DNA of 64,000 nt from an uncultured bacterium (GCA_964387845.1 CAYLXA010000001.1:345038-409037); one strand, 5' to 3'; numbered from the stretch's first letter, positions 217 to 43,706 are shown. The notes: generated from the letters alone by a model not told the origin. Made by a program: numbers and translations.

Positions 217-1890
217 CTACGAACGAACTTTATGATAGCGGCTTCTTAATAGCAAGAGAAAAGCAACATCTGCCGCTACCACGGCGGAAACATACCCCAC
301 ACCACCGCCGCCAAAACCATAACTATGAAGCCCGGCCGCTAAGACAAAATTCACGCCGTACCAGGCCATGATCACCGTCAAAAAGCAGACCGCGCACCAA
401 AACGCGGTCGCGAATGAATCCAGCCAGCCGGCAGTTCGCCCATGCATAACCGCCAAATACGCAAGTAACGCAATCAAAGCCCAGGTTTCCTTCGGATCCC
501 AGCCCCAAAACCGGCCCCATGAATAATTCGCCCAAACGCCGCCCAGGATTGTTCCGGCAGCGAGCAAAATAAGCCCAATTTGAAGCGAACGATAAAGAAA
601 AGTAATAAGCTCATCTAACGTTTTATTATTTTTTTTCTTAAAAGCATAGTGAAACACAACCACATGCGCGACACCCCAATTGAGCAAAAACGCACCATAG
701 CCGAGCGTAATCGTCAGCACATGAACTGTGAGCCAAAAATTGCTGCGCAAAACGGGAACCAAAGGCGAAATCGACTGGTCCAAAACCGCCGGTAAATTTT
801 CGCTGATCAAGAGCGCCAGAATGGATACGGACGCTGCGATCATCGGAATCAAATAGGACCTGTAAAAAGCAAAAAGAATGAGCGAGAAAAGCACAACACT
901 CCACGACACCCAAATGACTGACTCATACATGTTCGTCACGGGCGGACGCCCGGCGATTAAACAACGCAGCACAAAACCCAACGTATGAACCGCAAAAGCC
1001 GCGGTAAAAAATGAGAAAGCGATTTTATTGGCGCGTTTTTTATTTCTCAGTGTCAGCCAGATCAGAAGGCTGCCTAAATAAATTGCCCATGCCGTATGAA
1101 ACGGGCGAAATTTGAGATAGAAAAGCTCGTAATGAATCAACGTCCGGTCGATGATGATGTCGCGCGATTCCAGTAATTTTGTAAGCGCATTGGCGAAAAA
1201 TGAAGCAGATACGCCGGCCATTTCGATTTTTTCATCCCGCAAGCGGCCGAGGAGAAATGAAAGTGAGTTACTCGCTTCCTTCACATTCGCCGCGGGATAC
1301 ATGGTTTCCAAAATGGAAATACCGTGATCGCTCGCAAGCCCCTCAAGCGGAACCCACCCCGCCTGTGGATCATCGGGATGCGGAATAAAGCCCGGCATTT
1401 CTCCGCGCCCGATAGCCTGAAACAGACGCGCTCTGCTTCCGAGTTCAATCATTGCCTTTTCGTATTCGTTTAGTTTTTCTTTTCTGTCCTGCTTAGCCCT
1501 TACTTCACCTGTTCTTGCCGTAAAATTCAAATCGGCGAGAACAAGAGAAGGTGCGATTCTATTGTTTTCCAGATCCGCGGAGAAATCCTTTCGTAACTCG
1601 GGATTTGAAACAGGTAAAATAGCCTTCGCGCTCCAAATATCGGGGGCCGCAATCCATCGCCACACCAGTTCGGTTGGCTCCATTTTTTGAAAATGTGTTT
1701 TGCCGGTCATATAGAGGACGATTTCTTTCGCGAAACTCTCAAACGGCTTGACGCGGCCGCCCTGCTGAACCGGAATTCCACCCAAAACTTCGTGCGCATT
1801 ACCTTCGGATTGATTGGCAAAGGATTGGGGCGAGAAAAACATCGCCAAGAGAATGACTAAAGAAAGACTGACAATAAATTTACAATACAC
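217..1890 (-). CDS. ccsA: cytochrome c-type biogenesis protein CcsA/ResC (System II)
   Basis: Tryptophan-rich WWD motif WGWDPKETWALIALLAYLAVMHGR plus a polytopic C-terminal half. Signal-like KFIVSLSLVILLAMFFSPQSFA lies just after a GTG preceded by GGAAAGG. The ORF-track N-terminus (to 2001) is translation of an intergenic palindromic repeat, so I place the start near 1890. Confidence 0.8.
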   Translation of the reverse strand: MYCKFIVSLSLVILLAMFFSPQSFANQSEGNAHEVLGGIPVQQGGRVKPFESFAKEIVLYMTGKTHFQKMEPTELVWRWIAAPDIWSAKAILPVSNPELRKDFSADLENNRIAPSLVLADLNFTARTGEVRAKQDRKEKLNEYEKAMIELGSRARLFQAIGRGEMPGFIPHPDDPQAGWVPLEGLASDHGISILETMYPAANVKEASNSLSFLLGRLRDEKIEMAGVSASFFANALTKLLESRDIIIDRTLIHYELFYLKFRPFHTAWAIYLGSLLIWLTLRNKKRANKIAFSFFTAAFAVHTLGFVLRCLIAGRPPVTNMYESVIWVSWSVVLFSLILFAFYRSYLIPMIAASVSILALLISENLPAVLDQSISPLVPVLRSNFWLTVHVLTITLGYGAFLLNWGVAHVVVFHYAFKKKNNKTLDELITFLYRSLQIGLILLAAGTILGGVWANYSWGRFWGWDPKETWALIALLAYLAVMHGRTAGWLDSFATAFWCAVCFLTVIMAWYGVNFVLAAGLHSYGFGGGGVGYVSAVVAADVAFLLLLRSRYHKVRS

Positions 1891-1980
1891 CCCCTCACCC
1901 TTTCCCTCTCCCTGAGGGAGAGGGGAATTGTTTAACTCACTCCCTCTCCCGCTTGCGGGAGAGGGCTGGGGTGAGGGTTG
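1886..1980. repeat. compound palindromic repeat (ccctctccc...gggagaggg units inside an outer ccctcaccc/gggtgaggg stem)
   Basis: Two perfect inner palindromes, ccctctccctgagggagaggg and ccctctcccgcttgcgggagaggg, are enclosed by an outer inverted repeat. A related copy sits at 25715-25775. Confidence 0.7.
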
Positions 1981-2000
1981 ATTATTTAGAAATTGTCTCA

Positions 2001-3761
2001 TTAGATTTTCCTCATTTTGGGGTCACTGGTCTTAAGCGTCGAATATTGTTTTAAATAGAATAACAAAATAATTCCGACTATCATCACAATCGAACCCGCA
2101 TATTTAACCGGGATACCGGGGTCGCGCGCAACTGTAAAGACGGAAATATCCGGCTCGCCGGGCGTCACTTGATACGCAGATTGATACACTTTGAAACTAC
2201 GATGAACGAGCGGTTCATTCATCTGAATCAATTGATCGCGGCTGATTCCCTTCGCTACGTCTTTCAAAGTGACCTGGCTTTTGAAACTGGCGGGCCGGTT
2301 GGTGCCGGGATCCGTATCCATTAAAAAATCATTCAATTGAATCGTGAAGCCCAGCGGTTGCGTCTCAAGCCCATAAACAAAGTGCCAATCATGGCCGCCT
2401 AACTGAGTCCGTTCAACCTGGCCCTGCCGAAGCCATAAATTTTGAGATTCATTTCCGTCCGATAGTTCGATTTGAATGACGCGAGTTGCGCCTGTGCGCT
2501 CTGAAGCGAGAGGAATCGGAGAAAATGAACGTTCTACTTCGGCATGATGATAAAAAGCATCAACACTGAATTTAAAATCCATCCATCCGGTTTCAATTTG
2601 TTTGCCGATTTCGACAATGCCGTCCGTAAGCAAATCGCCCTTTTTAACTTGATAGCGCGGTAAACCGTCCGGATTATAAATGAACCGAAGTTCGTTCTTT
2701 GAAGCCGCTTGATCCGCTTGGCCGGCCATTTTCATCGCAATCCGCATTCCGGAAGCGCTTGGCGCCATGCCATGCACAGTCGGAAAATCGGGAAAATTCG
2801 CGAAAATGGTATGCTGTTCGTTCAATCCATCGCCTTCCAAGATCAATTCCACCGCGGGGTTCCGCCACTCCTTGGAACGGTCAATCAATTTGTTTTGATC
2901 TACAATCGCATCACGCAAAATACGGTTGAGCTTAGCGCGGATTTTAGTGCCTTGAAGCGTAAATGATTTTGGTTTGTCGGATTCCTTGATCGGAACCTGA
3001 ATGATTTTACCCGATTTGAGCATAAATTCTAAATGCGCAAATTCATCTCCCGATTTTTTCTTCGGTTTCTCGATGTCAATCGGTTGGCGCGCAAAATGAA
3101 TGACGGCGGCACCCATGGCTAGCTGATTTTTTTCGGGATTATCCAAGAAAAGCCAATCGTTGGTTTGCGCCATCGATCCGGATAGTGAAAATTGAATGGC
3201 GGGAGACCCTTTGGCGGATTCTTTGACAGATTCTCCCAAAACCGCTTTCGGGAAATCCTGCAAAACATGGATCTGAACGGAGCTTTTCGGCTTCAATTCC
3301 AATTTCCGGCGCCCGGACCACGGAAACACGCTTGGTTTATAATGCATGACAAAATGTTCTTTCAAATCGGGAGAGAAAATTTCAAGTATCGGATTCGCCA
3401 AAGTCATACGGCTTTCGGAATCGCCTTCCTGAATCGACACCTGCCCTTCAATCCCGAAACGCTGCGTGATCAAAGAACCAATGAGAATCAAGATGATTCC
3501 GAGATGGGTCAAAAGAAAACCGATGTGCTGCTTGCGCCACGGCCAACGGCTGATTGCGGATGCGGCTAAATTAATCGCCAGTAAAACCAAAACAATCGAA
3601 AACCAAGGAGTATAATAAATCAAGCGCTGGGCGGCTTCCGCACCGTGATACGACTCGATGAAGGTGCCGGCAGCCACAATAATCGCGACAGTTACAATAA
3701 GCAGAACCGCGCACCAAAGCGAAGCAAAAAATTTGAATAGGTCGGACAATAGATGATTCAT
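2001..3761 (-). CDS. ccsB: cytochrome c biogenesis protein ResB/CcsB (Ccs1, System II)
   Basis: N-terminal transmembrane helices (LWCAVLLIVTVAIIVAAG..., WFSIVLVLLAINLAASAISRWPW), a large periplasmic domain and a C-terminal transmembrane segment. It sits immediately upstream of ccsA, the classic resB-resC arrangement. Confidence 0.8.
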   Translation of the reverse strand: MNHLLSDLFKFFASLWCAVLLIVTVAIIVAAGTFIESYHGAEAAQRLIYYTPWFSIVLVLLAINLAASAISRWPWRKQHIGFLLTHLGIILILIGSLITQRFGIEGQVSIQEGDSESRMTLANPILEIFSPDLKEHFVMHYKPSVFPWSGRRKLELKPKSSVQIHVLQDFPKAVLGESVKESAKGSPAIQFSLSGSMAQTNDWLFLDNPEKNQLAMGAAVIHFARQPIDIEKPKKKSGDEFAHLEFMLKSGKIIQVPIKESDKPKSFTLQGTKIRAKLNRILRDAIVDQNKLIDRSKEWRNPAVELILEGDGLNEQHTIFANFPDFPTVHGMAPSASGMRIAMKMAGQADQAASKNELRFIYNPDGLPRYQVKKGDLLTDGIVEIGKQIETGWMDFKFSVDAFYHHAEVERSFSPIPLASERTGATRVIQIELSDGNESQNLWLRQGQVERTQLGGHDWHFVYGLETQPLGFTIQLNDFLMDTDPGTNRPASFKSQVTLKDVAKGISRDQLIQMNEPLVHRSFKVYQSAYQVTPGEPDISVFTVARDPGIPVKYAGSIVMIVGIILLFYLKQYSTLKTSDPKMRKI

Positions 3762-3861: not shown

Positions 3862-5949
3862 TCAGCCCCAAGCCAAGCTGATTTCGCAGGAAATTAAATG
3901 CGCAATGTAATCGCCAAATTCGGCGTTGGAATTGGCAAGATAGTAATAAAGTCCGTATTTTGGCTCAACAGTTACTTTTTCATTCACATTCCATTTCAAG
4001 CCCGCTTCCAAATCCAGTTTCCGATAATCAGATCCGATCGGCAAGCCTCTGGCAGTAAAATCATTAAAATTATCAGCACGGGCATATTGCACCGATTGAA
4101 TAAACGAAACATTTTCTTTCGGCATGTAGCTCGTACTCAATGTCCACGTATCCACATTCGCGTTAAAACCCGGCAGGTTACCGCTTAATGCGCCGGCGGC
4201 CGGAGTATTGGTGTTTGACATAAGCTTTGAATAGGAGCCCAGAATCATTACATTTTCAACGGGTTGCGATGTAAAATCAAAAATAAAATTATTTGAGGTT
4301 GTTTCCGTATCAACGCCTGCTAAATTTTCAATGTTCGTCCTGTAATTTGTATCGCGCCCGATAAACCGAAAAGACGGCTGAAGATATTTGGTTAATGTCA
4401 ATGCCAACCTCATCATGAATTCATTAATATAGGTGTGCTGGCTGTCAAAAAATGCAGATTTTGAAACTCCTGATGAAACAGTTTCGTAAATATCATCGTA
4501 ATCCGTCATTTTAAGAGTCCTTCGAAAATGCGAAGTAATCCGCACAAATGAAAACGGCGCTGCGTGCCCGCCTAAAGTCATCACGCCACGCTGGATGTTT
4601 GTAATCGTTTCGCGAATAAAAACTTCACTTGCACTCGCCCCCGACTGTCCGCCAACGCTATCCCGATTTTCAGACATCGGTAACCGGTCTTGTTCTAATT
4701 CCAATTCTGTATAAATAGCCGTCCGCGGAATCGCCGTAAATCTGGCCGTAATCCCTTGTCCCCACCTGAAACCGCTCATACGCGTATCGCTGACGTCAAA
4801 TCGGTTAATGCGATTATCGGGCGGATCTGTGGTCTCAACGTTATAAGTAGACTCTCCGCGGCGATTTAAAAATTCTGACTTAACCTTTGCGCCGATATTG
4901 AACCATTTTGTGACCAGGGCCATCATATTAGCAACCCAGGTGTTGGAATGAAAATGGTTGGTTGCGATATTGCCAAAACGGTTTTCAGCATTTGCAAATG
5001 AACGCGGATTACCATTTTCGTCAAACTCTCGGATATCTTCCCATTCTTTGTTATGGATTTGTGCATATCGATACCCAGCCGAAGTGTACACTTTGTCCTT
5101 TAAAAACCACTTCGCGATTCCAAATATTGAGCTGAAAGTGTGTGCTTCCGGCTTTTGCTGCTGCTTTCTAATTAATTTATTACCAGCCGTAGCATCAGAG
5201 TCAGCGCCAAAATATTTCTCGACGCGTGTGTTATCGGATTTCACAATTTCAAATTTTTGCTCGCTTTTAAGTTCATAACCTTTAACGGTATGGTCGACTT
5301 TCAAGCCAAACGTATCCGCCACTTCGCTCACATCCTGATAGGAAGGCGCTATTTTCCGCGTCACACCGCTCTGAACCACGTCTCCCCATGTTAATCTGGA
5401 TTTTGCACCATTTTTAAATTCGCGCTCATACCCAATCATTACTTTTGGAAAATCCGGTATATCCAGCTCCGCTTCAACGCCGAAATGGCCGATGTCCAGT
5501 TCTAAATCTTTAACCGCGTCGCCAACCCGGAGTGTGTAGTCGCCCCGCGTTAGATTAAACGGATGATAAACACCGCCCGTCCGGTCATAATATTTCCGGA
5601 ACTCTTGGTAATCAAATTTGATTTGTCCCACTTCTTTTTTCTTGATGATGACAACGCCTTCGTAATCATTGTCCGCGGGGATTGCCTTGCCTTCCATTTT
5701 TACCGTAATATCATTCGGAAGCCTGTAAAAAGAATAAAATTCCTCAACGCCTGCGGCGTAATTGTTGCTCTTCCAATGATGCGCTCTGAATTTATCGGCT
5801 TCCCCGTCCACAAAAATATAACGGACCGGAAGAGGTGTGATATCAAGATGATTTTCTGAATTATTTTCCGAAGCTGCGTATAGAGATTGAGTGACGGCCA
5901 AAGAGACATACGCTAAAACGAATATTAACTTCCAATATGAGCGTCTCAT
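3862..5949 (-). CDS. secreted putative outer-membrane beta-barrel (porin-like) protein
   Basis: Start refined to MRRSYWKLIFVLAYVSLAVTQSLYA (signal peptide) with RBS AGGAGG just upstream. About 696 aa. G/Y/N/T-rich with alternating hydrophobic pattern and no transmembrane helices. Co-operonic with multiheme cytochromes. Confidence 0.45.
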   Translation of the reverse strand: MRRSYWKLIFVLAYVSLAVTQSLYAASENNSENHLDITPLPVRYIFVDGEADKFRAHHWKSNNYAAGVEEFYSFYRLPNDITVKMEGKAIPADNDYEGVVIIKKKEVGQIKFDYQEFRKYYDRTGGVYHPFNLTRGDYTLRVGDAVKDLELDIGHFGVEAELDIPDFPKVMIGYEREFKNGAKSRLTWGDVVQSGVTRKIAPSYQDVSEVADTFGLKVDHTVKGYELKSEQKFEIVKSDNTRVEKYFGADSDATAGNKLIRKQQQKPEAHTFSSIFGIAKWFLKDKVYTSAGYRYAQIHNKEWEDIREFDENGNPRSFANAENRFGNIATNHFHSNTWVANMMALVTKWFNIGAKVKSEFLNRRGESTYNVETTDPPDNRINRFDVSDTRMSGFRWGQGITARFTAIPRTAIYTELELEQDRLPMSENRDSVGGQSGASASEVFIRETITNIQRGVMTLGGHAAPFSFVRITSHFRRTLKMTDYDDIYETVSSGVSKSAFFDSQHTYINEFMMRLALTLTKYLQPSFRFIGRDTNYRTNIENLAGVDTETTSNNFIFDFTSQPVENVMILGSYSKLMSNTNTPAAGALSGNLPGFNANVDTWTLSTSYMPKENVSFIQSVQYARADNFNDFTARGLPIGSDYRKLDLEAGLKWNVNEKVTVEPKYGLYYYLANSNAEFGDYIAHLISCEISLAWG

Positions 5950-5959
5950 GACGGCCTCC

Positions 5960-6742
5960 TTAATATCGAAGATGATCGTCAAAATTGGAACCATGAACCG
6001 CCGTGTGGCACTTCGCGCTGAAGCAAGTGCCTTGCGCAAGGCGCGTAGCATGATTAGAACTTCCGATGAACGGAAAATTATCTTGTGTATGACAACGTAA
6101 ACATAAATTACTGTCGCGGGCAATCAGCATTTTGTCAGTAATCGAGCCATGAACTTGATGACATGTCGTGCAGCCTTCGCGCAGCGCTTCATGCTCCCAC
6201 ACAAACGGGCCGCGTTGTTCTTTATGACATTTAAAGCATGCTTCGTTGACATCTTCCATGGTTGTGGATGACCATGGCCTGACTTCCGGTCCGTGCGGAC
6301 TATGGCAGTCCGAACAACTCATCTTTCCTTCGAGCACGGGATGGTGGTGCGGAAGATTAAATTCTACTTTTTTATCGGTATGACACGCAAAACAGACGGA
6401 CGGATCTTTTCTGGGATTAATGATTTTCTTATCTTGGCTGGATTCTTTTAACTTATCATCCATATCGACATGTAGACTTCCGGGGCCATGACAAAGCTCG
6501 CAGCCTTGTACCGCCATATCTTTTCCGGGAATGCTGATACGGGAATGGGTCGAAAGTTCAAACTCTTTGACTTCTTTTTCATGGCAAGCGGCGCAAGTAT
6601 CCATACCGACATACTCCGCGCCTTCTATGTTATGAACTTCGAGAACTTTTTGGAGGGCTTCTTCGTCGTATTTGCAAGAAGTGACACTGAGAACGAGGGA
6701 TAATACCGCAAAACTAACAAAAATGCTGGCTTTTTGATTCAT
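5960..6742 (-). CDS. multiheme c-type cytochrome lipoprotein (7 CXXCH + 1 CX4CH)
   Basis: Lipobox LSVTSC. Heme motifs CAACH, CELCH, CFACH, CSDCH, CFKCH, CTTCH, CLRCH and the atypical CFSAKCH. 260 aa. Confidence 0.85.
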   Translation of the reverse strand: MNQKASIFVSFAVLSLVLSVTSCKYDEEALQKVLEVHNIEGAEYVGMDTCAACHEKEVKEFELSTHSRISIPGKDMAVQGCELCHGPGSLHVDMDDKLKESSQDKKIINPRKDPSVCFACHTDKKVEFNLPHHHPVLEGKMSCSDCHSPHGPEVRPWSSTTMEDVNEACFKCHKEQRGPFVWEHEALREGCTTCHQVHGSITDKMLIARDSNLCLRCHTQDNFPFIGSSNHATRLAQGTCFSAKCHTAVHGSNFDDHLRY

Positions 6743-6875
6743 GCTAGCGGTTTATGATTTGTGTTTGCGTACGAATTATATTGTTTTATTAAGAAATGAC
6801 AATCGCTTTTATGGCAGTGAAATTATCGACATTTCCTGAAAAACTTTATGTGACATCTGTCACTTAAATTGACGT

Positions 6876-8366
6876 TTATGCAGGGCCGCCGGTATGGCAA
6901 TCCATGCACGATATTTCTTTCCATGATTCTTGATCGCCGTCGGGATGCTTAAATTCCAGCCCATCTACCGAACTTTCCATAGCGCCAAATGGACCTTGAG
7001 CAATAATCCCGTGGCAAATTTTGCAATCATTTGAAATGATTTTACCCTGCGGGCTTTCATGCTTGCCGTCATGGCAACGGAAACAACCTGGCGCCATCAT
7101 GTGCCCGATATTGTCCGGATACGCTTTCCAAGACACATTCATACCCGGGAAAAAGTTGGATTGATAAATTTCAACAATGGCTTGAATAGAACGGTCTAAC
7201 TTGTTTTTCTGATTCTGGAAAACTTCCGGATAATTATCCTCGTAAAATTTTTCCAACCGCGACCGAATCTGAGCAGCCGCATCATCATGAGACTCGTATT
7301 TGCCGACCAAAACCTTGACGGCTTCGCGTTTCATATAAGGGAGCTCGGCGGCAATATCGCCTTTTCCCATTGCTTTATTGACAGACCTGGAAGGCGCTTC
7401 ATATTGATGGCTGGGCCGATTGTGGCAATCGATGCAGTCCATTTTTCGGATTTCGCCTTGCGGCGGTTTGCTAGCAGAAAATTTTGACTCACTGTCTACA
7501 AAATATTCTTCGCGGCCATCCTCATAAACCACTTTGACCCATGGAATTATTTGACGTTTTTCGTCAGTTGAAACATAGTAAACTTTGTTCGCAGGGTTCA
7601 CATGCCAATGGCTTCCATGCGCCTTTTCCCCGCCGCCCACATACATCAGCATGCGGGTGTTCCAAAGTGTGTTACTTTCGTCTGACATGAAATATTGATG
7701 ATCCTTCTCAATGGCTCCAAAAAACTTCTCGGGCCAATGACAATGTTCGCATGTTTCTTGAGCGGGCCGTAAATTCTTGACCGGCGCCGGAATGGGTTTG
7801 GAATATTTCTTGAAAATAGATGAATAAATTTGATGGGCGCCGTTAATTTTAGACTTCAAATAATAATCAGGCCCTGGGCCGACATGGCATTCAACGCAGG
7901 AAACGCGGGCATGCGGCGATTTGTGATACGCGGTAAATTCCGGATGCATGACTTGATGGCAGGTTTTTCCGCAAAATGTCACGGATTCCGAAAATTGATA
8001 AGCCTTGTAAGTTCCAAACATAGAAAAAATCAAGAAAACCGTGAAAAACCCAATGCCGATTAACGCCCAGCGTTGATGGGCCGGATTATTAAAATCAATC
8101 TGCGGAAACTTGCGGACATAACCTCTTTTCCGGCGCGCCGAACGTTCCCGCCAAGCGCCAAAAAAAATTAAAAAAAGAGTGAGTATAAGGAAGGCCGGAA
8201 GCCCGACATAAGTGATGGATTGCGTGTAGGGATTAATTTCTTTTGAAAGGAATTCGAGGACAATTAAAACTAAGATAGCAGAGAAAATGACAATGGAAAG
8301 AATTGCGCCGATAATGCTGAGCCAATTTTGAAAAAGGCTTTTGTTTGAATTTGGCAATTCAGACAT
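6876..8366 (-). CDS. membrane-anchored multiheme c-type cytochrome (3 N-terminal transmembrane helices; 6 CXXCH + 1 CX3CH), ImcH-like architecture
   Basis: Three hydrophobic helices in the first ~120 aa. Then CGKTCH (CX3CH), CVECH, CEHCH, CIDCH, CFRCH, CKICH, CMDCH. 3 TM plus ~7 hemes matches my memory of inner-membrane quinol-oxidising cytochromes such as Geobacter ImcH. Confidence 0.75.
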   Translation of the reverse strand: MSELPNSNKSLFQNWLSIIGAILSIVIFSAILVLIVLEFLSKEINPYTQSITYVGLPAFLILTLFLIFFGAWRERSARRKRGYVRKFPQIDFNNPAHQRWALIGIGFFTVFLIFSMFGTYKAYQFSESVTFCGKTCHQVMHPEFTAYHKSPHARVSCVECHVGPGPDYYLKSKINGAHQIYSSIFKKYSKPIPAPVKNLRPAQETCEHCHWPEKFFGAIEKDHQYFMSDESNTLWNTRMLMYVGGGEKAHGSHWHVNPANKVYYVSTDEKRQIIPWVKVVYEDGREEYFVDSESKFSASKPPQGEIRKMDCIDCHNRPSHQYEAPSRSVNKAMGKGDIAAELPYMKREAVKVLVGKYESHDDAAAQIRSRLEKFYEDNYPEVFQNQKNKLDRSIQAIVEIYQSNFFPGMNVSWKAYPDNIGHMMAPGCFRCHDGKHESPQGKIISNDCKICHGIIAQGPFGAMESSVDGLEFKHPDGDQESWKEISCMDCHTGGPA

Positions 8367-8403: not shown

Positions 8404-8967
8404 TTACGATTTCGGTTTTGGATGTGCAATCTTTGCTTGGCGCTCTTTGTAATCAAACGGCTTGTAGGTCGGGCTTTCCTGATTATGGCACTTCACGCAC
8501 GTACTTTCATCCGGTAACAACAAACCATTTTCAATCGATGCCTGGCGGTCTTCCATAACACTTTTCTTCATATAATCCTTACCGGGCCCGTGACAGCTTT
8601 CGCAGGAAACACCTTCCTCTACCGGAATCGCATCAGAAACTTTTGTTTCGCCAAACCAATAAGCCGTTGAGTGGCATTTTAAACACTTGCCGCTGGTTTG
8701 AGGATCGCTAATACCTAATTTGGCAGCCGCTTCTTTCGCGGCGGGTGTGCCGAGTGTTTCAAATGCTTTAGCATGCATGGATTCCTGCCAAATCCGGAAT
8801 TGCTCACCTTCTTCCGGTTTTTTGTGGCACAGGGAACATTTTTTGGCTCCGATAAATTCATGTGCAGGCGCTGCTGCAAAAACAGGTTGATGGCTGAGAA
8901 AAAATACGGAAATAACAGCTAGGAAATATTTGAGAAAAATACCGGAATGAAACGAGTGCTTTGACAT
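8404..8967 (-). CDS. tetraheme c-type cytochrome (secreted)
   Basis: Start refined to MSKHSFHSGIFLKYFLAVISVFFLSHQPVFAAAPA (signal peptide), with AGGAG 11 nt upstream. Motifs CSLCH, CLKCH, CESCH, CVKCH. Confidence 0.8.
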   Translation of the reverse strand: MSKHSFHSGIFLKYFLAVISVFFLSHQPVFAAAPAHEFIGAKKCSLCHKKPEEGEQFRIWQESMHAKAFETLGTPAAKEAAAKLGISDPQTSGKCLKCHSTAYWFGETKVSDAIPVEEGVSCESCHGPGKDYMKKSVMEDRQASIENGLLLPDESTCVKCHNQESPTYKPFDYKERQAKIAHPKPKS

Positions 8968-9294: not shown

Positions 9295-9621
9295 ATGCAA
9301 AGCGTGTTACTATTAATTGCTCTCGGTTTTGGCTTTAAAATATTCGCGGAAGCCAGTGAAAAGCAGAAAAAACCCATTAAACAGCTCGGCCGGTTGGTCG
9401 GTATTATCATCATGATTGTCAGCCTTTGCGGCGTTTTGTGCAGCATTTTCGCCTGCATGAAAGGCAGCCCCTGTGGTCCGGCGACGGCCGGCTATTGCCC
9501 TACTCATGGATCCGAAAAAGGAATGATGGGTTTCGGCCATTACGGGATGAAAAAGGATAAGGCGATGTGCCCCTTGTTTGGTTCAGCCGATAAGAATGCT
9601 GTTTCCGACGAGGCAAAATAA
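9295..9621 (+). CDS. small Cys-rich membrane protein, hypothetical (possible metal-binding)
   Basis: Strong RBS GAGGAGG 7 nt before ATG. One transmembrane helix followed by a Cys/His/Met-rich tail (CGVLC...CMKGSPCGP...GYCPTHG...MMGFGHYGM...MCPLFG). Confidence 0.5.
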   Translation: MQSVLLLIALGFGFKIFAEASEKQKKPIKQLGRLVGIIIMIVSLCGVLCSIFACMKGSPCGPATAGYCPTHGSEKGMMGFGHYGMKKDKAMCPLFGSADKNAVSDEAK

Positions 9622-12232: not shown

Positions 12233-14494
12233 TTACTTCCCCTTCATTAAATTCAGCGCGCTGCCGGCCTTAAACCAGGCGACCTGCTCCTGTGTAAAAG
12301 AATGCACGAGCGGCGCGTTTTCGGTTTCGCCGTTTGCGTGCATAATCACAAGCTCCAGCAAACTTTTGGGCGCCAAAATATCAACGCCTTCGATGCTGAT
12401 GCGGTCATCCGCTTTGATTTTGTCATAATCAGACGGGTTTTTGAACTTAAGCGGCAGGAGGCCCTGCTTTTTTAAATTCGTTTCATGAATCCGCGCAAAA
12501 CTTTTTGCAATCACGGCTGCGCAGCCCAAATACCGCGGGCTCATCGCGGCATGTTCGCGGCTTGAGCCTTCACCATAATTTTCATCGCCGACCACAACCC
12601 AACGGAGGTTATTCTTTTTATAATCGCGCGCCACTTCCGCCGGTGTCATTTTAGTACCCTTTTGAAGCTGATTCAGGGCTGTGCCTTGCGCACCGGAAAA
12701 ATCATTGTTGGCTCCGAGAAACATGTTGTCTGAAATTTTATCCAGATGGCCTCGATATTTGAGCCATGGCCCGGCTGGCGAAATATGGTCCGTCGTACAT
12801 TTCCCCTTCGCTTTGAGCAGCACCGGAAGATTTTCGAAATCGCTTTCCTTCCAGGGCTTAAACGGCTCCAATTTCTGGAGGCGCTCGCTTTGCGCATCGA
12901 TTGAAACTTGCACAAAAATTCTCTCTTTTTCGGAGAGCGGCGCCAGAAATCCCGCTTCGCCTGCGGCAAATCCGCTGGAAGGAAGTTCCGGTGCTTCGGG
13001 CGGCGTCAAAAGTATTTCCTTTCCGCCGGTTTTGATTTTGTCTTTAAGCGGATTGAAATCGAGGCGGCCTGCCAGTGCATAGGCCGTCACGATTTCGGGC
13101 GAGGCGATAAAAGCCAGAGTTTCGGGATTACTATCGTTTCTCGCAGGAAAATTACGGTTAAAGGATGTAATGATCGAATTTTTCTCGCCTTTTTTGATAT
13201 CGTCACGTTTCCACTGGCCAATGCAGGGGCCGCAGGCATTTGCAAGAACCGTTCCGCCGATTTCTTCTAAGGCCTGAAGCTGGCCGTCTCGCTTAATGGT
13301 GTTTTGAATTTGGTCGGATCCCGGCGTGATTAAAAAGTAGCACTGGGCTTTAATGCCGGCTTCACGGGCCTGTTCGGCCACCTGCGCAGCGCGGCCGATA
13401 TCTTCATAAGAAGAATTGGTACAACTGCCGATGAGCGCAGCTTTGATCATCGCCGGATAACCTTTTTCTTTCACGTCCTTCGCCATCTCGGAAACCGGGC
13501 GTGCCAAATCCGGCGTATGTGGGCCCACAACATGCGGCTCTAGCGCGGACAAATCAATTTCAATCACTTCGTCATAATAAAGTTCCGGGTTTTTATCGAT
13601 TTCAGGATCTGCAGTCAGAAATTTTTTGTGCTGCTCGGCGATATCCGCAATTTCTTTGCGTTTTGTGCTGCGCAAATAAGTTACCATTCGCGAATCAAAC
13701 GGAAAAACAGAAGTCGTTGCGCCCAGCTCTGCGCCCATATTGGCGATTGTGCCTTTTCCGGTACAGCTGATAGACTGCGCGCCGGATCCAAAGTATTCGA
13801 CGATCTTATCCGTTCCGCCTTTCGTTGTTAAAATCCCACAAAGTTTCAAAATCACGTCCTTGGCAGAAGCCCAGCCGTTCAATTTTCCCTTTAAATGAAC
13901 GCCTATCAACTTCGGGCATTTGACTTCCCAGCTGAGGCCCGACATCACATCGGCTGCATCCGCGCCGCCGACACCGATCGCCAGCATGCCAAGGCCGCCT
14001 GCATTCGGCGTGTGGGAATCCGTCCCGATCATCAACCCGCCGGGAAACGCATAGTTTTCGAGCACAACTTGATGAATAATCCCCGCGCCGGGTTTCCAAA
14101 ATCCGATCCCGTAACGCTGCGCTGCGGTTTTCAGGAATTCGTAGACTTCCTTATTGGTTTGGACTGCATTGAGCGTGTCTTCTGCGGCACCGATCCGGGC
14201 TTGGATCAAATGATCACAATGAATGGTTGTAGGAACCGCGACGGAATTGCGCTGAGCCAGCATGAATTGCAGGATTGCCATTTGCGCTGTCGCATCCTGC
14301 ATTGCCACGCGGTCCGGCCTGAGTGAAAGATAGCTTTCGCCGCGCACGAAATCCTGGGATTTGAGATCTGTCACGTGCGTTGCCAGGATTTTTTCGGTAA
14401 GCGTGAGCGGCCGGGCTAATTTTTTTCTGAGAAAATCAACTTTACCTTCGGCAGTTGCCAAAAGGCTCTTAATCATAAAAAGCGCATCGCTCAT
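12233..14494 (-). CDS. acnA: aconitate hydratase (aconitase A)
   Basis: 753 aa. Fe-S ligand region IGSCTNSSYEDI, ANACGPCIGQW, SFNRNFPARNDSNPET and the swivel domain. Full-length aconitase-family match. Confidence 0.95.
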   Translation of the reverse strand: MSDALFMIKSLLATAEGKVDFLRKKLARPLTLTEKILATHVTDLKSQDFVRGESYLSLRPDRVAMQDATAQMAILQFMLAQRNSVAVPTTIHCDHLIQARIGAAEDTLNAVQTNKEVYEFLKTAAQRYGIGFWKPGAGIIHQVVLENYAFPGGLMIGTDSHTPNAGGLGMLAIGVGGADAADVMSGLSWEVKCPKLIGVHLKGKLNGWASAKDVILKLCGILTTKGGTDKIVEYFGSGAQSISCTGKGTIANMGAELGATTSVFPFDSRMVTYLRSTKRKEIADIAEQHKKFLTADPEIDKNPELYYDEVIEIDLSALEPHVVGPHTPDLARPVSEMAKDVKEKGYPAMIKAALIGSCTNSSYEDIGRAAQVAEQAREAGIKAQCYFLITPGSDQIQNTIKRDGQLQALEEIGGTVLANACGPCIGQWKRDDIKKGEKNSIITSFNRNFPARNDSNPETLAFIASPEIVTAYALAGRLDFNPLKDKIKTGGKEILLTPPEAPELPSSGFAAGEAGFLAPLSEKERIFVQVSIDAQSERLQKLEPFKPWKESDFENLPVLLKAKGKCTTDHISPAGPWLKYRGHLDKISDNMFLGANNDFSGAQGTALNQLQKGTKMTPAEVARDYKKNNLRWVVVGDENYGEGSSREHAAMSPRYLGCAAVIAKSFARIHETNLKKQGLLPLKFKNPSDYDKIKADDRISIEGVDILAPKSLLELVIMHANGETENAPLVHSFTQEQVAWFKAGSALNLMKGK

Positions 14495-14566: not shown

Positions 14567-14914
14567 TTATTTACAGCAGTCTAATACGATGCCGCCTTCC
14601 GGAAGCGGAATATCGACTGTTGTCAGCGGGAAAGTCACCAAATGAAGTGCGCCGCCAACCGTGTCTGCGATACCGTTCCAAAGCCCGCGTCCAACCCCTT
14701 CAATGAAGTTGCCGCCGCTTTTTGCAGCTTCGTAGGGCTCGGTGAAGATTTCGCTCCATCCAAGCACCACATTGGATAACCCATAAGTGAACTTATGGAA
14801 CGCTTTCTTGCCGTATGAAGAATCGGCTTTGTTCCATGCGCTCATATCAGCAGCAAATGCTGATGAGCTTAGGATTAATAAGCAAAGAACAAAAACTGCT
14901 ATTTTTTTCATCAT
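14567..14914 (-). CDS. small secreted protein resembling the exosortase-system-associated TIGR04073 family
   Basis: Start refined to MMKKIAVFVLCLLILSSSAFA with RBS AAGGAGGAAG. Motifs YGLSNVVLGWSEIFTEP and GVGRGLWNGIADTVGGALHLVTFP resemble the G-x-x-N...GW-x-EI-P / R-G-x-x-x-G...TFP pattern recalled for that family. Confidence 0.5.
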   Translation of the reverse strand: MMKKIAVFVLCLLILSSSAFAADMSAWNKADSSYGKKAFHKFTYGLSNVVLGWSEIFTEPYEAAKSGGNFIEGVGRGLWNGIADTVGGALHLVTFPLTTVDIPLPEGGIVLDCCK

Positions 14915-14993
14915 GTTAACTTCCTCCTTGTGGTGGGGTTGCCACCAATTTTGTGTCTTTATATATCGGAAGGGGGTCAAACGAACTCAAGCA

Positions 14994-15215
14994 CTAAAAA
15001 CTGAGGGCAAGTTTCTTAAAGAATTCAATACCTGCAGGATAGACGTAAAGTATTATAATAAAACAAGTTGGGATTAATATAAGCCAATTGATTAGGAGGC
15101 GGGTTTGAGGATTTTTGACCCGGATAGGCAAAATAGTGGATAAGGTAAGAGCCAGAGCAGCGATCAGAGCCAAAACCCACGGATTAGATAAAATTTCATT
15201 CATTTGACACCTCAA
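14994..15215 (-). CDS. small hypothetical membrane protein
   Basis: 73-aa ORF with two hydrophobic helices. It overlaps the dinB stop by ~20 nt. No homology recognised. Confidence 0.25.
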   Translation of the reverse strand: MRCQMNEILSNPWVLALIAALALTLSTILPIRVKNPQTRLLINWLILIPTCFIIILYVYPAGIEFFKKLALSF

Positions 15216-16299
15216 AAAGTTCGGCCTGAACCGCCTCAGCCGGCATCTCCCCCAATTCCCGAAGCCCGCTTAAACCCAACCCCAACAGTCTAACCGGTTT
15301 TTTGCCTGCCAGGGTCTTTTTTTGAAGAAGTTCGGCCGCTATTTGATAAATCTCGCGCCAGTTTTTGGGCTCATGCTGAAGGGTAAACGACCTGGTAATC
15401 AGCTCAAAATCATGATATTTCACCTTCAAAACCACCGTCCGGCCCATCCTGCCCTCTTGTTTGAGCTCGCTGAAAATATATTCCGCGTATTCTTCAAGCT
15501 TTGAACGAAGCGGCGCAAGTGCGGTGATATTTTTCTCGAACGTCTCTTCCGTGCTGAATTGCTTTGATTCCGTATAAGGCTCGACTTCCCGCTCATCGAT
15601 TCCCTGCGCCGTTTGATAAAGCCAGCGGCCGGTTTTCCCGAATTTATTGATTAAGAACGAGATATCGGCACCGGCAAGCTCTCCGCAGGTTTTGATTCCC
15701 AGGCCCAAAAGCCGTGCTTCTGTTTTGGGGCCAACACCCGGAATCTTTCGGACCGGTAAATCTTCAAGAAAGCTCGTAATCTGATCGGGCCGAATCACAG
15801 TCAGTCCGTCCGGTTTTTTAAAATCAGAGGCGACTTTCGCCAAAAATAAATTAGGCGCTACACCGGCAGACGCTGTCAGCTTGGTTACGGCAAAAATATT
15901 CTGCTTGATTAGTGACGCGATCACTTTCGGATCCTGGATATTTAATTTATGCTTCGTAACATCCAAATACGCTTCGTCAAGAGACATGGCTTCCATGAGA
16001 TCAGTGTGCTGATGCAGAATTGACATGACTTGATCGGATGCTTTCCGATATTTTTCGAAATGAGGCCTGACAAATATCGCTTGCGGGCAAAGCCGGCGCG
16101 CTTGAGCTGCCGGCATCGCGGAGTGAATCCCGAATTTGCGCGCTTCATAAGAAGCCGTACTGACCACGCCGCGGCCGAAAGGATCGCCGCCCACCACAAC
16201 CGGTTTTCCGCGTAATTTTGGATTATCGCGTTGCTCGACAGACGCGAAAAACGCGTCCATATCAATGTGAATAATTTTTCTAGGCCAGATGGTCTTCAA
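15196..16299 (-). CDS. dinB: DNA polymerase IV (Y-family translesion polymerase)
   Basis: IIHIDMDAFFASVEQRDNP...PVVVGG...SYEARKFGI...SLDEAYLDVT; conserved through the thumb and little-finger domains. Confidence 0.95.
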   Translation of the reverse strand: MKTIWPRKIIHIDMDAFFASVEQRDNPKLRGKPVVVGGDPFGRGVVSTASYEARKFGIHSAMPAAQARRLCPQAIFVRPHFEKYRKASDQVMSILHQHTDLMEAMSLDEAYLDVTKHKLNIQDPKVIASLIKQNIFAVTKLTASAGVAPNLFLAKVASDFKKPDGLTVIRPDQITSFLEDLPVRKIPGVGPKTEARLLGLGIKTCGELAGADISFLINKFGKTGRWLYQTAQGIDEREVEPYTESKQFSTEETFEKNITALAPLRSKLEEYAEYIFSELKQEGRMGRTVVLKVKYHDFELITRSFTLQHEPKNWREIYQIAAELLQKKTLAGKKPVRLLGLGLSGLRELGEMPAEAVQAELFEVSNE

Positions 16300-16315
16300 A
16301 GGAAGGTAATGCTAA

Positions 16316-16516
16316 TTAATCGTTTCTTAATTCGCCGCTTGCTACTTTTTGATTATGACGGTCAACCGCTTCATTGTAACCGTCAACCGACTGTTTGGCT
16401 TGATTGGCAATTTCGGGATGGTCTTCAAGATACTTTTCGGAAGCTTTCGCTATCCAAACAACCAAAATAATGACAATTAAAATCGAGATACCGACGCATA
16501 TCCAAAATTGTTTCAT
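16316..16516 (-). CDS. small single-pass membrane protein, hypothetical
   Basis: 66 aa. Transmembrane segment ICVGISILIVIILVVWIA followed by a charged tail. RBS GGAGAG 6 nt upstream. Confidence 0.4.
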   Translation of the reverse strand: MKQFWICVGISILIVIILVVWIAKASEKYLEDHPEIANQAKQSVDGYNEAVDRHNQKVASGELRND

Positions 16517-16589
16517 AACGATCTCTCCGAAAGTAAAAGAATAATAGCATACTCATGGTTTTCCTGCAAAATCTAAGTTATAATTCGCC

Positions 16590-17597
16590 ATGCTTGTTCT
16601 AAAAACTCTTAAGCTAGACTCTCCCGCGATCCAATCTCCCATGGCGGGCTGCACAGACCTTGCGTTTCGCCTGATCGGACGCCAGCATGGGATGGAGCTT
16701 GCCTTCTGTGAAATGCTTTCATCGGAAGCGCTGATCCGAGACACCAAAGAGACTTACGAATTAATGAAGCGCCTGCCGGAAGATAAGCCGCTCGGAGCGC
16801 AGATCGTAGGTGATAAACCGGCCTCGATGGCAGAGGCGGCGGCAAAACTCGAATCACTCGGGTTTGACATCATCGACATGAACCTCGGCTGCCCCGTTCC
16901 CAAAATCACATCCAAAGGCGGCGGCTCGGCGCTTCTCGTTAAGCCGGACCTTGCGAAAAAAATTTTTGATGCTGTCGTGAGAGCCGTTAAAAATGTACCG
17001 GTCAGTGTCAAAGTCAGAGCTGGATATGAAGACGCCTCCGGAAAAGAAGCTGTCCTGATTGCCAAACTCGCGGAAGATGCCGGAATTTCGGCGGTAAGCG
17101 TTCATGGCCGCACGCGCGCACAGCGTTACGTCGGCCCTGCAGACTGGAGCACGATCACCAAAGTCAAGGAAGCCGTGAAAATCCCCGTGATCGGAAACGG
17201 TGATATATTTTCGTGGCACAATGCGGTCAAAATGAGGCAAGAAACAAACTGCGACGCCGTCATGGTCAGCCGCGGCGGGCTTGGAAATCCCTGGATTTAC
17301 AAACAAATCAAAGCGGCATTGTCGGGCGAGCCGGTCCCGAATGACCCGACCTTCGAAGAATTAAAAGAAACGCTCCTCAAACATATGGAGCTTGAAGTGG
17401 AGCACTACGGAGAACATTTCGGGCTTCTGCAAATGCGCAAAGTCGCGTGCTGGTTTTTCGATGAAATGCACGGGGTGTCGGAATTCCGGAAGCAGATTAA
17501 TGTGTGTTCTGATTTGAATTTGATGCGGGAATTAATCGCAAAATTCGATCCACGAATTTCCGCACATGCCGCTCAACCCAGGTCAGCTCTTCATTAA
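16590..17597 (+). CDS. tRNA-dihydrouridine synthase (DusB-like)
   Basis: SPMAGCTDLAFR, DIIDMNLGCPVPKITSKGGGSALL, VSVKVRAG, AVSVHGRTRAQRY and GNGDI are all Dus TIM-barrel motifs. Confidence 0.9.
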   Translation: MLVLKTLKLDSPAIQSPMAGCTDLAFRLIGRQHGMELAFCEMLSSEALIRDTKETYELMKRLPEDKPLGAQIVGDKPASMAEAAAKLESLGFDIIDMNLGCPVPKITSKGGGSALLVKPDLAKKIFDAVVRAVKNVPVSVKVRAGYEDASGKEAVLIAKLAEDAGISAVSVHGRTRAQRYVGPADWSTITKVKEAVKIPVIGNGDIFSWHNAVKMRQETNCDAVMVSRGGLGNPWIYKQIKAALSGEPVPNDPTFEELKETLLKHMELEVEHYGEHFGLLQMRKVACWFFDEMHGVSEFRKQINVCSDLNLMRELIAKFDPRISAHAAQPRSALH

Positions 17598-21010: not shown

Positions 21011-22108
21011 TCAGATTCTGACTTTTGTTTGAATCTTTTCGATAATGGCCTGCGCCATTTCTTTGGTGCCGACTGCCGTCGGGTCATCACGATTTTGTTT
21101 CAAATCATAGGTAACGCTCTTTCCTTCACGAATGACAGCTGCTACCGCATTTTCAAGTTTTTTTGCGGCTTCTTCTTCACCGAGATGCTGCAGCATCAAA
21201 ACGCCTGACAGAATAACAGCGGTTGGGTTTACTTTGTTCAAGCCCGCATATTTCGGCGCAGAACCATGCGTCGCTTCAAAAATCGCCGCGCCGCCGATTC
21301 CAATGTTAGCGCCCGGCGCAATCCCGAGCCCGCCGATAAGCCCCGCGCAAACGTCCGAAATAATATCACCATAGAGATTCGGGAGCACGATTACATCATA
21401 CAGCTCGGGTTTTTGAACGAGCTGCATGCACATATTGTCCACAATCCGGTCTTCAAATTCGATATTGGGATATTTTTTTGCCACTTCGCGCGAAACTTCA
21501 AGCCACAAACCGTCCGAATACTTCATGATGTTAGCTTTATGGACAGACGTCACTTTTTTGCGCTTATACTTCACGGCATAATCAAAAGCAAATTTGACGA
21601 TACGCTCCGTTCCGGAAACAGAGATGGGCTTAATGCTCACGCCTGAATCCGGGCGAATCGGCTGCTTGGAAAGAGACGAGCAAAGATCGAGAACCTGCTT
21701 TGCTTCCGGCGTTCCCTTCTGGAACTCGATGCCGGCGTATAAATCTTCAGTATTTTCACGGACAATTACCAAATCGATGTTTTTATATTTGGAACGGACG
21801 CCTTCATAAGATTTACAGGGACGAAGGCAAGCAAACAGGTCAAACTTTTTGCGGAGTGCTACATTGACGGAACGAAAACCTTTTCCGACCGGGGTTGTAA
21901 TGGGCGCTTTGATGGCAACTTTGTTCTTTTCGATGGATTTGAGAAGTTCATCGGGAAGCGGCGTTCCCACCTTCTCCATAATATCGACGCCGGCTTCTTG
22001 GATATCCCAATTGATTTTGACGCCCGTCGCATCAATGCAGCGCTTAGCAGCTTCGGCAAGCTCAGGGCCCGTTCCATCACCGCGGATGAGTGTAATATCG
22101 TAAGCCAT
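21011..22108 (-). CDS. icd: isocitrate dehydrogenase (isocitrate/isopropylmalate dehydrogenase family)
   Basis: Start refined to [67 protein letters not shown]. Assigned icd rather than leuB from the acnA/aceBA context. Confidence 0.85.
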
Positions 22109-22199
22109 TTTTAATTTCCCTTCTCTTGCATGAATTGCTATGATGAGCGCTTCGGAAAGTGAAATCGTAACAAATCTATGCGGGTATTTCAACAGATTA

Positions 22200-25714: not shown

Positions 25715-25775
25715 CTTCCCTCACCCCTCCCTCTCCCTCAGGGAGAGGGATAAAGGGAGAGGGGAATTAAGGGAG
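25715..25775. repeat. ccctctccc/gggagaggg palindromic repeat, copy 2 (aceB-aceA intergenic)
   Basis: ccctcacccctccctctccctcagggagagggataaagggagaggggaatt shares the perfect ccctctccctcagggagaggg palindrome and gggagaggggaatt with the copy at 1886-1980. Confidence 0.7.
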
Positions 25776-25780
25776 ACGCC

Positions 25781-42039: not shown

Positions 42040-42041
42040 TC

Positions 42042-42078
42042 TTGAAGTCACAAACTGTGACCTCAAGATTATAAATTC
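42042..42078 (+). terminator. near-perfect hairpin immediately after the helicase stop
   Basis: tcttgaagtcacaaactgtgacctcaagatt, a 12-bp stem with one mismatch; weak T-tract. A second palindrome cggttaacacagttaaccg lies at 42097-42117. Confidence 0.45.
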
Positions 42079-42154
42079 TTAGCCCCTCCACGTACTGGAT
42101 ATTGTCCGGTTAACACAGTTAACCGAATGACCTGCTATCTAGTTTATAAATGTA

Positions 42155-43690: not shown

Positions 43691-43706
43691 AAAAGTTTAT
43701 AATCAT

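Follow-up and report, generated by a model that had tools for sequence, protein, structure and literature searches.

A gene for an ImcH-type heptaheme cytochrome beside a putative octaheme-barrel conduit in an uncultured bacterium

Which protein is encoded at positions 6876..8366 (minus strand) of a 64,000-nucleotide stretch of DNA from an uncultured bacterium (the whole stretch is hereafter called the window), and where would its electrons go? The original prediction read the gene as an ImcH-like inner-membrane cytochrome and as the inner-membrane partner of a conduit encoded close by. In Geobacter sulfurreducens, ImcH is needed for the use of high-potential extracellular acceptors and oxidizes menaquinol (PMC4251993; 10.1101/2023.05.03.539133). 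Levar et al. (2014) described it as a protein with three putative transmembrane helices, seven heme motifs of which the first is CXXXCH, and a NapC/NirT-like region (PMC4251993, Fig. 1 legend). Zhong and Shi (2018) extended this description to the Geobacter group, whose ImcH proteins have 495-519 residues, three transmembrane helices, and a membrane-adjacent CX3CH motif followed by six CX2CH motifs, while homologs of other bacteria carry 5-9 CX2CH motifs; homologs were found in 12 phyla, and three of them came from Candidatus Omnitrophica (PMC6295460). Pimenta et al. (2023) measured about 6.6 Fe per protein and observed partial reduction of ImcH by menadiol (10.1101/2023.05.03.539133).

The open reading frame starts with ATG and encodes 496 amino acids. 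A single sense codon separates the upstream in-frame stop from this ATG (497 codons from stop to stop), and the alignment consensus places the starts of homologs at the same position. Hydropathy reveals three hydrophobic segments (approximately residues 10-45, 49-74, and 99-120), all of which precede the first heme motif. An AlphaFold2 model based on a 79-sequence alignment (mean pLDDT 79.6, pTM 0.73) shows the heme domain preceded by long helices at residues 15-41, 46-81, and 95-126, which form the predicted N-terminal membrane domain (7989..8324, minus strand). Eight Lys/Arg residues fall in the loop that joins helices 2 and 3 (residues 73-98), compared with one each in the N-terminus, the first loop, and the segment after helix 3. 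This charge distribution indicates that the N-terminus lies inside (N-in topology) and that the heme domain is on the periplasmic side, where covalent heme attachment requires it to be. The three N-terminal helices of the original prediction are therefore borne out by hydropathy, the modeled helices, and the positive-inside charges, and the protein is predicted to be anchored in the inner membrane by these helices, with a periplasmic heptaheme domain.

Seven heme-binding sites were located on the minus strand by motif scanning, and they were confirmed by alignments. The first, CGKTCH (CX3CH; residues 132-137, 7956..7973), is followed by CVECH (157-161, 7884..7898), CEHCH (206-210, 7737..7751), CIDCH (311-315, 7422..7436), CFRCH (428-432, 7071..7085), CKICH (448-452, 7011..7025), and CMDCH (487-491, 6894..6908), the last six being supported by a 128-sequence alignment. 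All 14 Cys residues of the protein lie within these motifs (14/14, far above chance), leaving no spare Cys, so that the expected count of seven sites beginning with CGKTCH holds. Covalent binding of seven hemes and an inner-membrane location are accordingly predicted. The original prediction had singled out the CX3CH site as a departure from the usual CXXCH; the motif is indeed present, but it is no deviation within this family, since it is a published hallmark of ImcH (PMC4251993, PMC6295460).

For a direct comparison with ImcH, a 507-residue protein (P0277; record "MULTISPECIES ... [Geobacter]") was taken as the G. sulfurreducens sequence. Its retrieval was indirect. The first 275 residues of ImcH were rebuilt from a machine-read supplementary alignment in which letters had been dropped, and this partial sequence retrieved orthologs at seven Geobacteraceae loci (L001-L007) and not G. 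sulfurreducens itself; a protein search seeded with one of these orthologs (L001) then recovered P0277. A degenerate DNA pattern combining MTLRKT with the ligand positions found no G. sulfurreducens imcH among the genome contigs searched, for which a non-ATG start or the absence of that genome may account. The assignment of P0277 is supported by its N-terminus, MTLRKTAGYLWNP (starting MTLRKT), which agrees with the N-terminal sequencing reported in bioRxiv (10.1101/2023.05.03.539133), and by the correct residue at all published positions: E127, H137, H152, H161, K173, Q179, Y188, H210, H256, and H258, as well as H316, H321, H423, H433, H453, H474, and H491.

The pairwise alignment with P0277 bears out the ImcH-like reading. 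In BLASTP, 486 residues could be aligned, of which 40% are identical and 62% score as positives (E 7e-145), and the alignment runs end to end (residues 14-494) with 8 gapped positions. The value falls inside the 31.5-49% identity published for Geobacter-group ImcH versus other bacteria (PMC6295460). Six Geobacteraceae orthologs drawn from the L001-L007 loci gave 37-40% identity (E from about 1e-131 to 1e-138). The motif starts are nearly superimposable, at residues 132/157/206/311/428/448/487 in the query and 132/157/206/312/429/449/487 in P0277.

Conservation extends to the axial ligands and to the residues of the quinol site. With the axial-ligand list taken from the supplement of 10.1101/2023.05.03.539133, counterparts of ImcH His137, 152, 161, 210, 256, 258, 316, 321, 423, 433, 453, 474, and 491 were found for all 13 positions in the query, where they are numbered 137, 152, 161, 210, 253, 255, 315, 320, 422, 432, 452, 474, and 491. 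Across the 128-sequence alignment, which includes the six Geobacteraceae proteins, the seven motifs and these 13 His residues are kept at 99-100%. The distal ligands of ImcH (six His and Gln179) and the pocket residues Glu127, Lys173, and Tyr188 are likewise present in the query and conserved at 85-100% in the same alignment: K173 is invariant (128/128), Q179 occurs in 126/128 sequences, E127 in 117/128 with Asp in the other 11, and Y188 in 109/128 with Phe in a further 16. Judged by everything that sequence can test for this family, the query is an ImcH ortholog.

The curated profiles, taken by themselves, would point elsewhere, as their matches are limited to the NapC/NirT/NrfH-like region of the protein. 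Pfam PF03264 (Cytochrom_NNT) matches residues 102-189 (E 6.7e-12, 45.9 bits against a cutoff of 24.1); this region, homologous also to NrfH (2j7a), covers helix 3 and hemes 1-2 with the predicted quinol site (7800..8063, minus strand). Among the NCBIfam models, NrfH reached 51.4 bits against a cutoff of 134.2 and TorC 15.3 against 455. NrfH (2J7A) is also the only meaningful relative in the PDB, both by sequence and by Foldseek (E 0.011, probability 1.0, 112 columns), and the PDB copy searched contained no structure of the ImcH family. Such matches could be read as the signature of an ordinary quinol dehydrogenase of the NapC/NirT/NrfH type that serves a periplasmic reductase for nitrate, nitrite, TMAO, or DMSO, the additional CXXCH motifs being fortuitous. 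This explanation is extremely improbable. Proteins of that type have approximately 150-200 residues (about 150-390 for canonical NapC/NirT/NrfH/CymA dehydrogenases as a whole), one helix, 4-5 hemes, and a CXXCH motif at heme 1, against 496 residues, three helices, and seven hemes here, and the NrfH score stays far below its cutoff. Moreover, helices 1-2 and hemes 4-7 are shared with ImcH in a full-length match, and they are accordingly not unrelated extensions of a NapC-like core; and no gene for a periplasmic reductase of the NrfA, NapA, TorA, or DorA type occurs in the 64-kb window. Assignment to NrfH/NapC, to CymA, or to CbcL was rejected on architecture and profile scores. In the case of CbcL, Pfam found no cytochrome b domain (PF01292 or Ni_hydr_CYTB) in the query, which is therefore not CbcL-like.

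The relationship to NrfH is informative about heme 1. The single residue that converts CXXCH into CX3CH is inserted within the heme 1 motif. C132, G133, C136, H137, and M140 occur without exception in the 79-sequence alignment; in the 128-sequence set, C132, C136, H137, and M140 remain invariant (128/128) and G133 is found in 127/128. In the HMMER alignment with NrfH, Met140, Lys173, and Gln179 of the query stand opposite Met49, Lys82, and Asp89 of the quinol/heme 1 pocket, and Met49 is the ligand of heme 1 in NrfH (2J7A). Because Met140 is invariant in the family and aligned with this ligand, heme 1 may be ligated by Met instead of by His/Gln as modeled.

The ImcH-type family is large and widespread. 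A search of 5.8 billion proteins with the query returned at least 7,954 matches, and the best 120 of these are nearly all full length (about 500 residues) with 45-70% identity; an exhaustive HMMER scan over 1.84 billion cluster representatives yielded 735 ImcH-type 50% clusters at E <= 1e-30. The named organisms among the best 120 matches are mostly Candidatus Omnitrophica/Omnitrophota metagenome-assembled genomes (MAGs), followed by Elusimicrobiota, KSB1, Deferribacteres, and others, and the host of the present gene is probably a member of Omnitrophota. The family, its CX3CH hallmark, and its occurrence in Omnitrophica have all been published, and the gene will not surprise a specialist: with the hallmark published and Omnitrophica homologs reported in 2018, it adds a member to a known family.

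The surroundings of the gene bear on the second part of the question. Only three multiheme open reading frames exist in the window, and they form one minus-strand string. Upstream of imcH lies a gene for a c554-like tetraheme cytochrome (8404..8967, start possibly 9039, minus strand; PF13435, E 1.2e-17) with a signal peptide and four CXXCH motifs, a candidate periplasmic acceptor. Downstream, a 260-residue octaheme cytochrome (5960..6742, minus strand), recognized by its motifs and homologs, carries seven CXXCH motifs, a terminal CFSAKCH (CX4CH), and a lipobox-like VTSC, and is a candidate periplasmic or in-barrel component. Next to it, a 695-residue protein (3862..5949, minus strand) has no match in Pfam. 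Its AlphaFold2 model (mean pLDDT 89.5) is an all-beta outer-membrane barrel of about 28 strands without a plug domain, and among PDB structures the model most resembles MtrB of the Mtr complex (6r2q_B, E 2.6e-10), with the 22-strand TonB-dependent receptors ranking behind it. The barrel is too divergent from MtrB to be detected by sequence similarity; its family comprises 69 detectable homologs, and all of those with a named organism belong to Omnitrophota. Genes for the System II cytochrome c heme-attachment proteins ResB (2001-3761, minus strand; PF05140) and CcsA (217-2001, minus strand; PF01578) close the string, in which all genes from the c554-like cytochrome to ResB/CcsA share one strand with short gaps between them. 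A palindromic sequence examined as a possible operator, GTGACANNTGTCAC, occurs in one exact copy; four sites were found at <=2 mismatches compared with 1.0 expected, and 2 of 100 shuffles equaled this count, a signal too weak for any conclusion.

Taken together, these features make it probable, at a high level of confidence, that the ImcH ortholog passes quinol electrons through the c554-like cytochrome and then through the octaheme/barrel conduit across the outer membrane. By homology, menaquinol would bind at the periplasmic face beside heme 1, at the end of helix 3, in a pocket around the CX3CH heme formed by Glu127, Met140, Lys173, Gln179, and Tyr188. Protons would be released into the periplasm, as in ImcH, where they are released to the P side in an electroneutral reaction (10.1101/2023.05.03.539133). 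Electrons would then travel through the successive hemes, leave from heme 7, and be taken up by a soluble cytochrome of the periplasm, for which the c554-like tetraheme protein encoded upstream is the likeliest candidate. This protein would deliver them to the octaheme cytochrome and the MtrB-like barrel encoded directly downstream of imcH, and hence across the outer membrane. From homology and gene context we infer that quinol is oxidized, that electrons run outward, and which proteins act as partners. Two observations count against this reading: G. sulfurreducens ImcH passes electrons directly to periplasmic PpcA (10.1101/2023.05.03.539133), and no homolog of this triheme type was found here; in addition, the window has no gene for an outer-surface cytochrome beside the conduit, which weighs against the outward direction.

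Comparison of imcH loci across genomes provides a further line of evidence. Homologs of the octaheme cytochrome (42-48% identity) and of the barrel (21-30%, E 1e-12 to 1e-23) are encoded immediately upstream of imcH in six Opitutaceae/Verrucomicrobiota and in one Kapaibacterium, and ccsA/resB adjoins in three of these seven loci. Within Omnitrophota, the octaheme and barrel genes are kept as a pair; for example, their products are 76% and 52% identical to those encoded at 14653-15438 and 15447-17501 of one locus (L020). The nearest arrangement is found in a locus with about 80% DNA identity (L027, P0121), where the order of the window is preserved, with a 651-residue cbcL-like gene added between imcH and the octaheme gene. 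This gene is missing from the window, where about 200 nt occupy its position, although it is the next gene after imcH in the Omnitrophota loci L020-L024 and L027, and its product there contains the cytochrome b domain PF01292. Linkage to ResB/CcsA recurs in L027, L012, L013, L015, and L023, and in loci of Omnitrophota, KSB1, and Deferribacteres a c554-like homolog is an adjacent or close neighbor of imcH. The 2018 survey reported no mtrAB or mtoAB beside imcH, while some cymA genes were found to adjoin mtrAB/mtoAB (PMC6295460). The recurrence of the octaheme-barrel-imcH neighborhood thus gives comparative support to the originally predicted role as inner-membrane partner of a conduit: the neighborhood stands as an observation, and the partnership is suggested by it. 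The linkage of these genes (with ResB/CcsA) across three phyla, including a previously unclassified MtrB-like barrel family, is a modest addition to the published picture.

The same comparison also contains loci in which the association is looser. In L020-L022 the order is multiheme cytochrome, Rieske protein, cytochrome b, c554-like, imcH, cbcL-like, histidine kinase, sigma-54 regulator, octaheme, and barrel, so that the cbcL-like gene and a two-component system separate imcH from the octaheme/barrel pair. In L023 and L024, a cytochrome/FeS/NrfD module precedes imcH, ResB/CcsA genes lie behind the cbcL-like gene, and the 8-kb flanks examined contain no octaheme/barrel pair. The imcH genes of KSB1 and Deferribacteres lie among other cytochrome genes and are not accompanied by a barrel. 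Within the window, the top sigma-70-like site of the first 10 kb (TTGTCA-16-TATAAT, 6802..6775) falls in the spacer between imcH and the octaheme gene, and because of its position the two genes may be transcribed separately, with the proviso that the totals of the promoter and terminator scans were not above shuffled expectation. The promoter-like site, the genes that intervene in L020-L022, and the loci with no octaheme/barrel pair or barrel close to imcH would suit a less dedicated protein, a CymA-like hub that oxidizes quinol for many periplasmic cytochromes or reductases, the adjacency to the conduit reflecting mere co-localization of cytochrome genes; the Geobacter protein does interact with several Ppc cytochromes (10.1101/2023.05.03.539133). 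We nevertheless regard such a role as unlikely, since octaheme-barrel-imcH adjacency recurs in three phyla and genes for other reductases were not found nearby in the window.

Sequence does not reveal which way the electrons flow, and the module might in principle work inward, with Fe(II), a mineral, or a partner cell as the electron source of the octaheme/barrel pair and the ImcH-family protein reducing quinone. A two-component conduit with no gene for a surface cytochrome has the layout of MtoAB/PioAB of Fe(II) oxidizers, which likewise lacks an outer-surface cytochrome. In addition, the related Omnitrophota clusters contain Rieske and cytochrome b genes, and in L021 and L022 genes for COX3, SCO1, and heme O synthase are located nearby. 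An inward role would also parallel the proposal for CymA and for CbcL/MtoC homologs, which adjoin mtoAB in Fe(II) oxidizers (PMC6295460). Several observations nevertheless make this direction rather unlikely: ImcH homologs have been reported solely from Fe(III) reducers (PMC6295460), the heme potentials of ImcH (-358 to -150 mV) suit quinol oxidation (10.1101/2023.05.03.539133), and the window contains no Cyc2 or oxidase gene. Its remaining genes are of the housekeeping type, together with aconitase, isocitrate dehydrogenase, isocitrate lyase, and malate synthase of the TCA cycle and glyoxylate shunt, which weakly suggest an organotroph in need of an electron sink. A bolder version holds that imcH, the octaheme gene, and the MtrB-like barrel gene (with ResB/CcsA) form a self-contained cassette of Omnitrophota, Verrucomicrobiota, and Kapaibacteria that may serve electron uptake with ImcH-type quinone reduction, an idea prompted by the same MtoAB/PioAB-like absence of a surface cytochrome. 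It is a rather improbable scenario, but if true, it would overturn the view of ImcH homologs as quinol oxidases only.

The practical value of these results lies first in a secure annotation for a gene that would otherwise be called "NapC/NirT family cytochrome c" or remain nameless in databases. They also mark an uncultured host as a candidate for extracellular electron transfer. One gene string would supply an inner-membrane quinol oxidase, a periplasmic cytochrome, a cytochrome/barrel pair across the outer membrane, and the proteins for heme attachment; the resulting route is compact and lends itself to heterologous expression. Finding octaheme-barrel-imcH in three phyla takes the 2018 survey (PMC6295460) a modest step further, and this recurrence would help to predict from genomes which uncultured lineages respire metals or humics. 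A second small new point is that Met140, which stands where NrfH has its heme 1 ligand, is invariant throughout the family. Knowledge of how ImcH works is unchanged by the present gene.

Several known systems resemble parts of this arrangement. The octaheme cytochrome and the large plug-less barrel recall the periplasmic cytochrome and porin of MtrAB/MtoAB/PioAB and of Geobacter Pcc, the differences being that the cytochrome has eight hemes instead of the ten of MtrAB-type conduits and that a surface cytochrome gene is absent here. CbcL, MtoC, and MtrH are alternative quinol oxidases of extracellular electron transfer, the role predicted for the query; in them a multiheme c domain is fused to a diheme cytochrome b (HydC/FdnI-type, PF01292), which the query lacks. 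CymA of Shewanella belongs to the same NapC/NirT superfamily and shares the proposed function of a quinol-oxidizing entry point to a porin-cytochrome route, but it is a tetraheme protein with one helix, compared with seven hemes and three helices. In NrfH of Desulfovibrio vulgaris (PDB 2J7A), the top Foldseek match, the equivalents of helix 3 and hemes 1-3 align with residues 93-213 of the query; NrfH has one helix, four hemes, a CXXCH motif at heme 1, and a fixed complex with NrfA, and relative to it the query has one additional residue in the heme 1 motif, two additional helices, and three additional hemes. Geobacter ImcH differs in phylum, the best matches of the query being Omnitrophota MAGs, and in gene context. 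The G. sulfurreducens gene is monocistronic (PMC4251993) and imcH stands alone in all seven Geobacteraceae loci, whereas the present gene shares its string with those for the c554-like cytochrome, the octaheme cytochrome, the barrel, and ResB/CcsA, a difference that counts against the main reading. As a protein, however, ImcH (GSU3259) matches the query throughout, with 507 versus 496 residues, three helices, one CX3CH and six CXXCH motifs at corresponding positions, and all axial His residues, Gln179, Glu127, Lys173, and Tyr188 in common at 40% identity over the full length.

The cytochrome gene string of the window differs from those of the related Omnitrophota loci examined in lacking a cbcL-like gene next to imcH. 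In the syntenic relative L027, which shares approximately 80% DNA identity with the window from aconitase to CcsA, a 651-aa cbcL-like gene (multiheme plus Ni_hydr_CYTB; L027 11484-13619) is flanked by imcH and the octaheme cytochrome gene, whereas the same position in the window (6681-6883) comprises just about 200 nt, and comparison with the L027 gene detected no remnant of it there. Since the remaining Omnitrophota loci examined also carry a cbcL-like gene directly after imcH, loss in the lineage of the window is the simpler reading of its absence.

The spacer that separates imcH from the octaheme cytochrome gene contains a perfect palindrome, GTGACATCTGTCAC (6850-6863, minus strand), followed by a sigma-70-like site, TTGTCA-16-TATAAT (6775-6802, minus strand), which is the best match of its kind within the first 10 kb of the window. 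Elsewhere, near-matches to this palindrome hardly exceed the number expected by chance. Together, the two elements could constitute an internal promoter with an operator.

Downstream, the octaheme cytochrome gene (5960-6742) encodes an eighth heme motif of the CX4CH type, CFSAKCH (6005-6025, minus strand), which is conserved as CFSARCH in the Omnitrophota locus L020. Because its N-terminus carries a lipobox-like VTSC, the octaheme cytochrome may be a lipoprotein. It is followed by a 695-aa barrel protein (3862-5949, minus strand) that has no Pfam family and only 69 homologues in a search of 5.8 billion proteins, with all organism-named ones belonging to Omnitrophota. Its AlphaFold2 model (pLDDT 89.5) comprises approximately 28 strands arranged in a plug-less barrel, for which MtrB is the best PDB match. 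Distant homologues of the barrel (21-30% identity) adjoin imcH in Verrucomicrobiota and Kapaibacterium.

The string ends with genes for a System II pair (217-3761, minus strand), ResB of 586 aa and CcsA, which at 594 aa is unusually long. This pair may be the only one of its kind in the cell or may instead be dedicated to the CX3CH/CX4CH sites, and ccsA/resB also adjoin imcH clusters in five other loci (L012, L013, L015, L023 and L027). Conservation with L027 does not extend to roughly the first 45 codons of this ccsA ORF (about 1844-1993), a segment that also contains a strong GC-rich inverted repeat (hairpin, 1898-1927). At the opposite end, a c554-like tetraheme gene of approximately 184 aa accompanies imcH in all non-Geobacter loci examined by gene table, namely L020-L024 (Omnitrophota), L025 (KSB1) and L026 (Deferribacteres). 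In the Omnitrophota loci, this gene is positioned between a multiheme/Rieske/cytochrome b set and the imcH and cbcL-like genes, which are followed by a histidine kinase and then a sigma-54 response regulator. Upstream of the cytochrome string in the window, a divergent 108-aa ORF (9295-9621, plus strand) encodes a cysteine-rich small membrane protein with no Pfam match, and L027 has a 112-aa gene at the matching relative position.

Beyond the cytochrome genes, the window encodes aconitase, isocitrate dehydrogenase, malate synthase and isocitrate lyase (12233-14494, 21011-22192 and 24113-27088). These glyoxylate shunt and TCA enzymes suggest that the organism oxidises acetate or organic acids, a metabolism that would require a respiratory electron sink. 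Further along, GC content falls to 0.32 (versus about 0.46 elsewhere) over 42001-44750, a stretch that encodes a DUF4325 (STAS-like) protein as well as a 511-aa ORF without a Pfam match and may be an island gained by horizontal transfer.

Within the ImcH family, two kinds of enlarged proteins were found. ImcH-like proteins of about 691 aa from an NC10 MAG (L014) and an unclassified bacterial MAG (L011) carry 16 heme motifs in total, including nine extra CXXCH at the C-terminal end, and five proteins of about 655 aa (P0298, P0305, P0308, P0309 and P0311) have the ImcH core fused to Cache sensor domains (PF08269/PF17200), the one named member, P0298, being from Desulfuromonadaceae. Met140 of the window protein (7947-7949), which follows heme site 1 in a CX3CH-x-x-M arrangement, does not vary among 128 sequences of the family, G. 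sulfurreducens ImcH being one of them. The 2023 ImcH preprint (bioRxiv 10.1101/2023.05.03.539133) models heme 1 as His137/Gln179, and the text consulted makes no mention of this Met. By alignment, Met140 is the counterpart of Met49 of the quinol dehydrogenase NrfH, where this residue takes the place of His as a ligand of heme 1.
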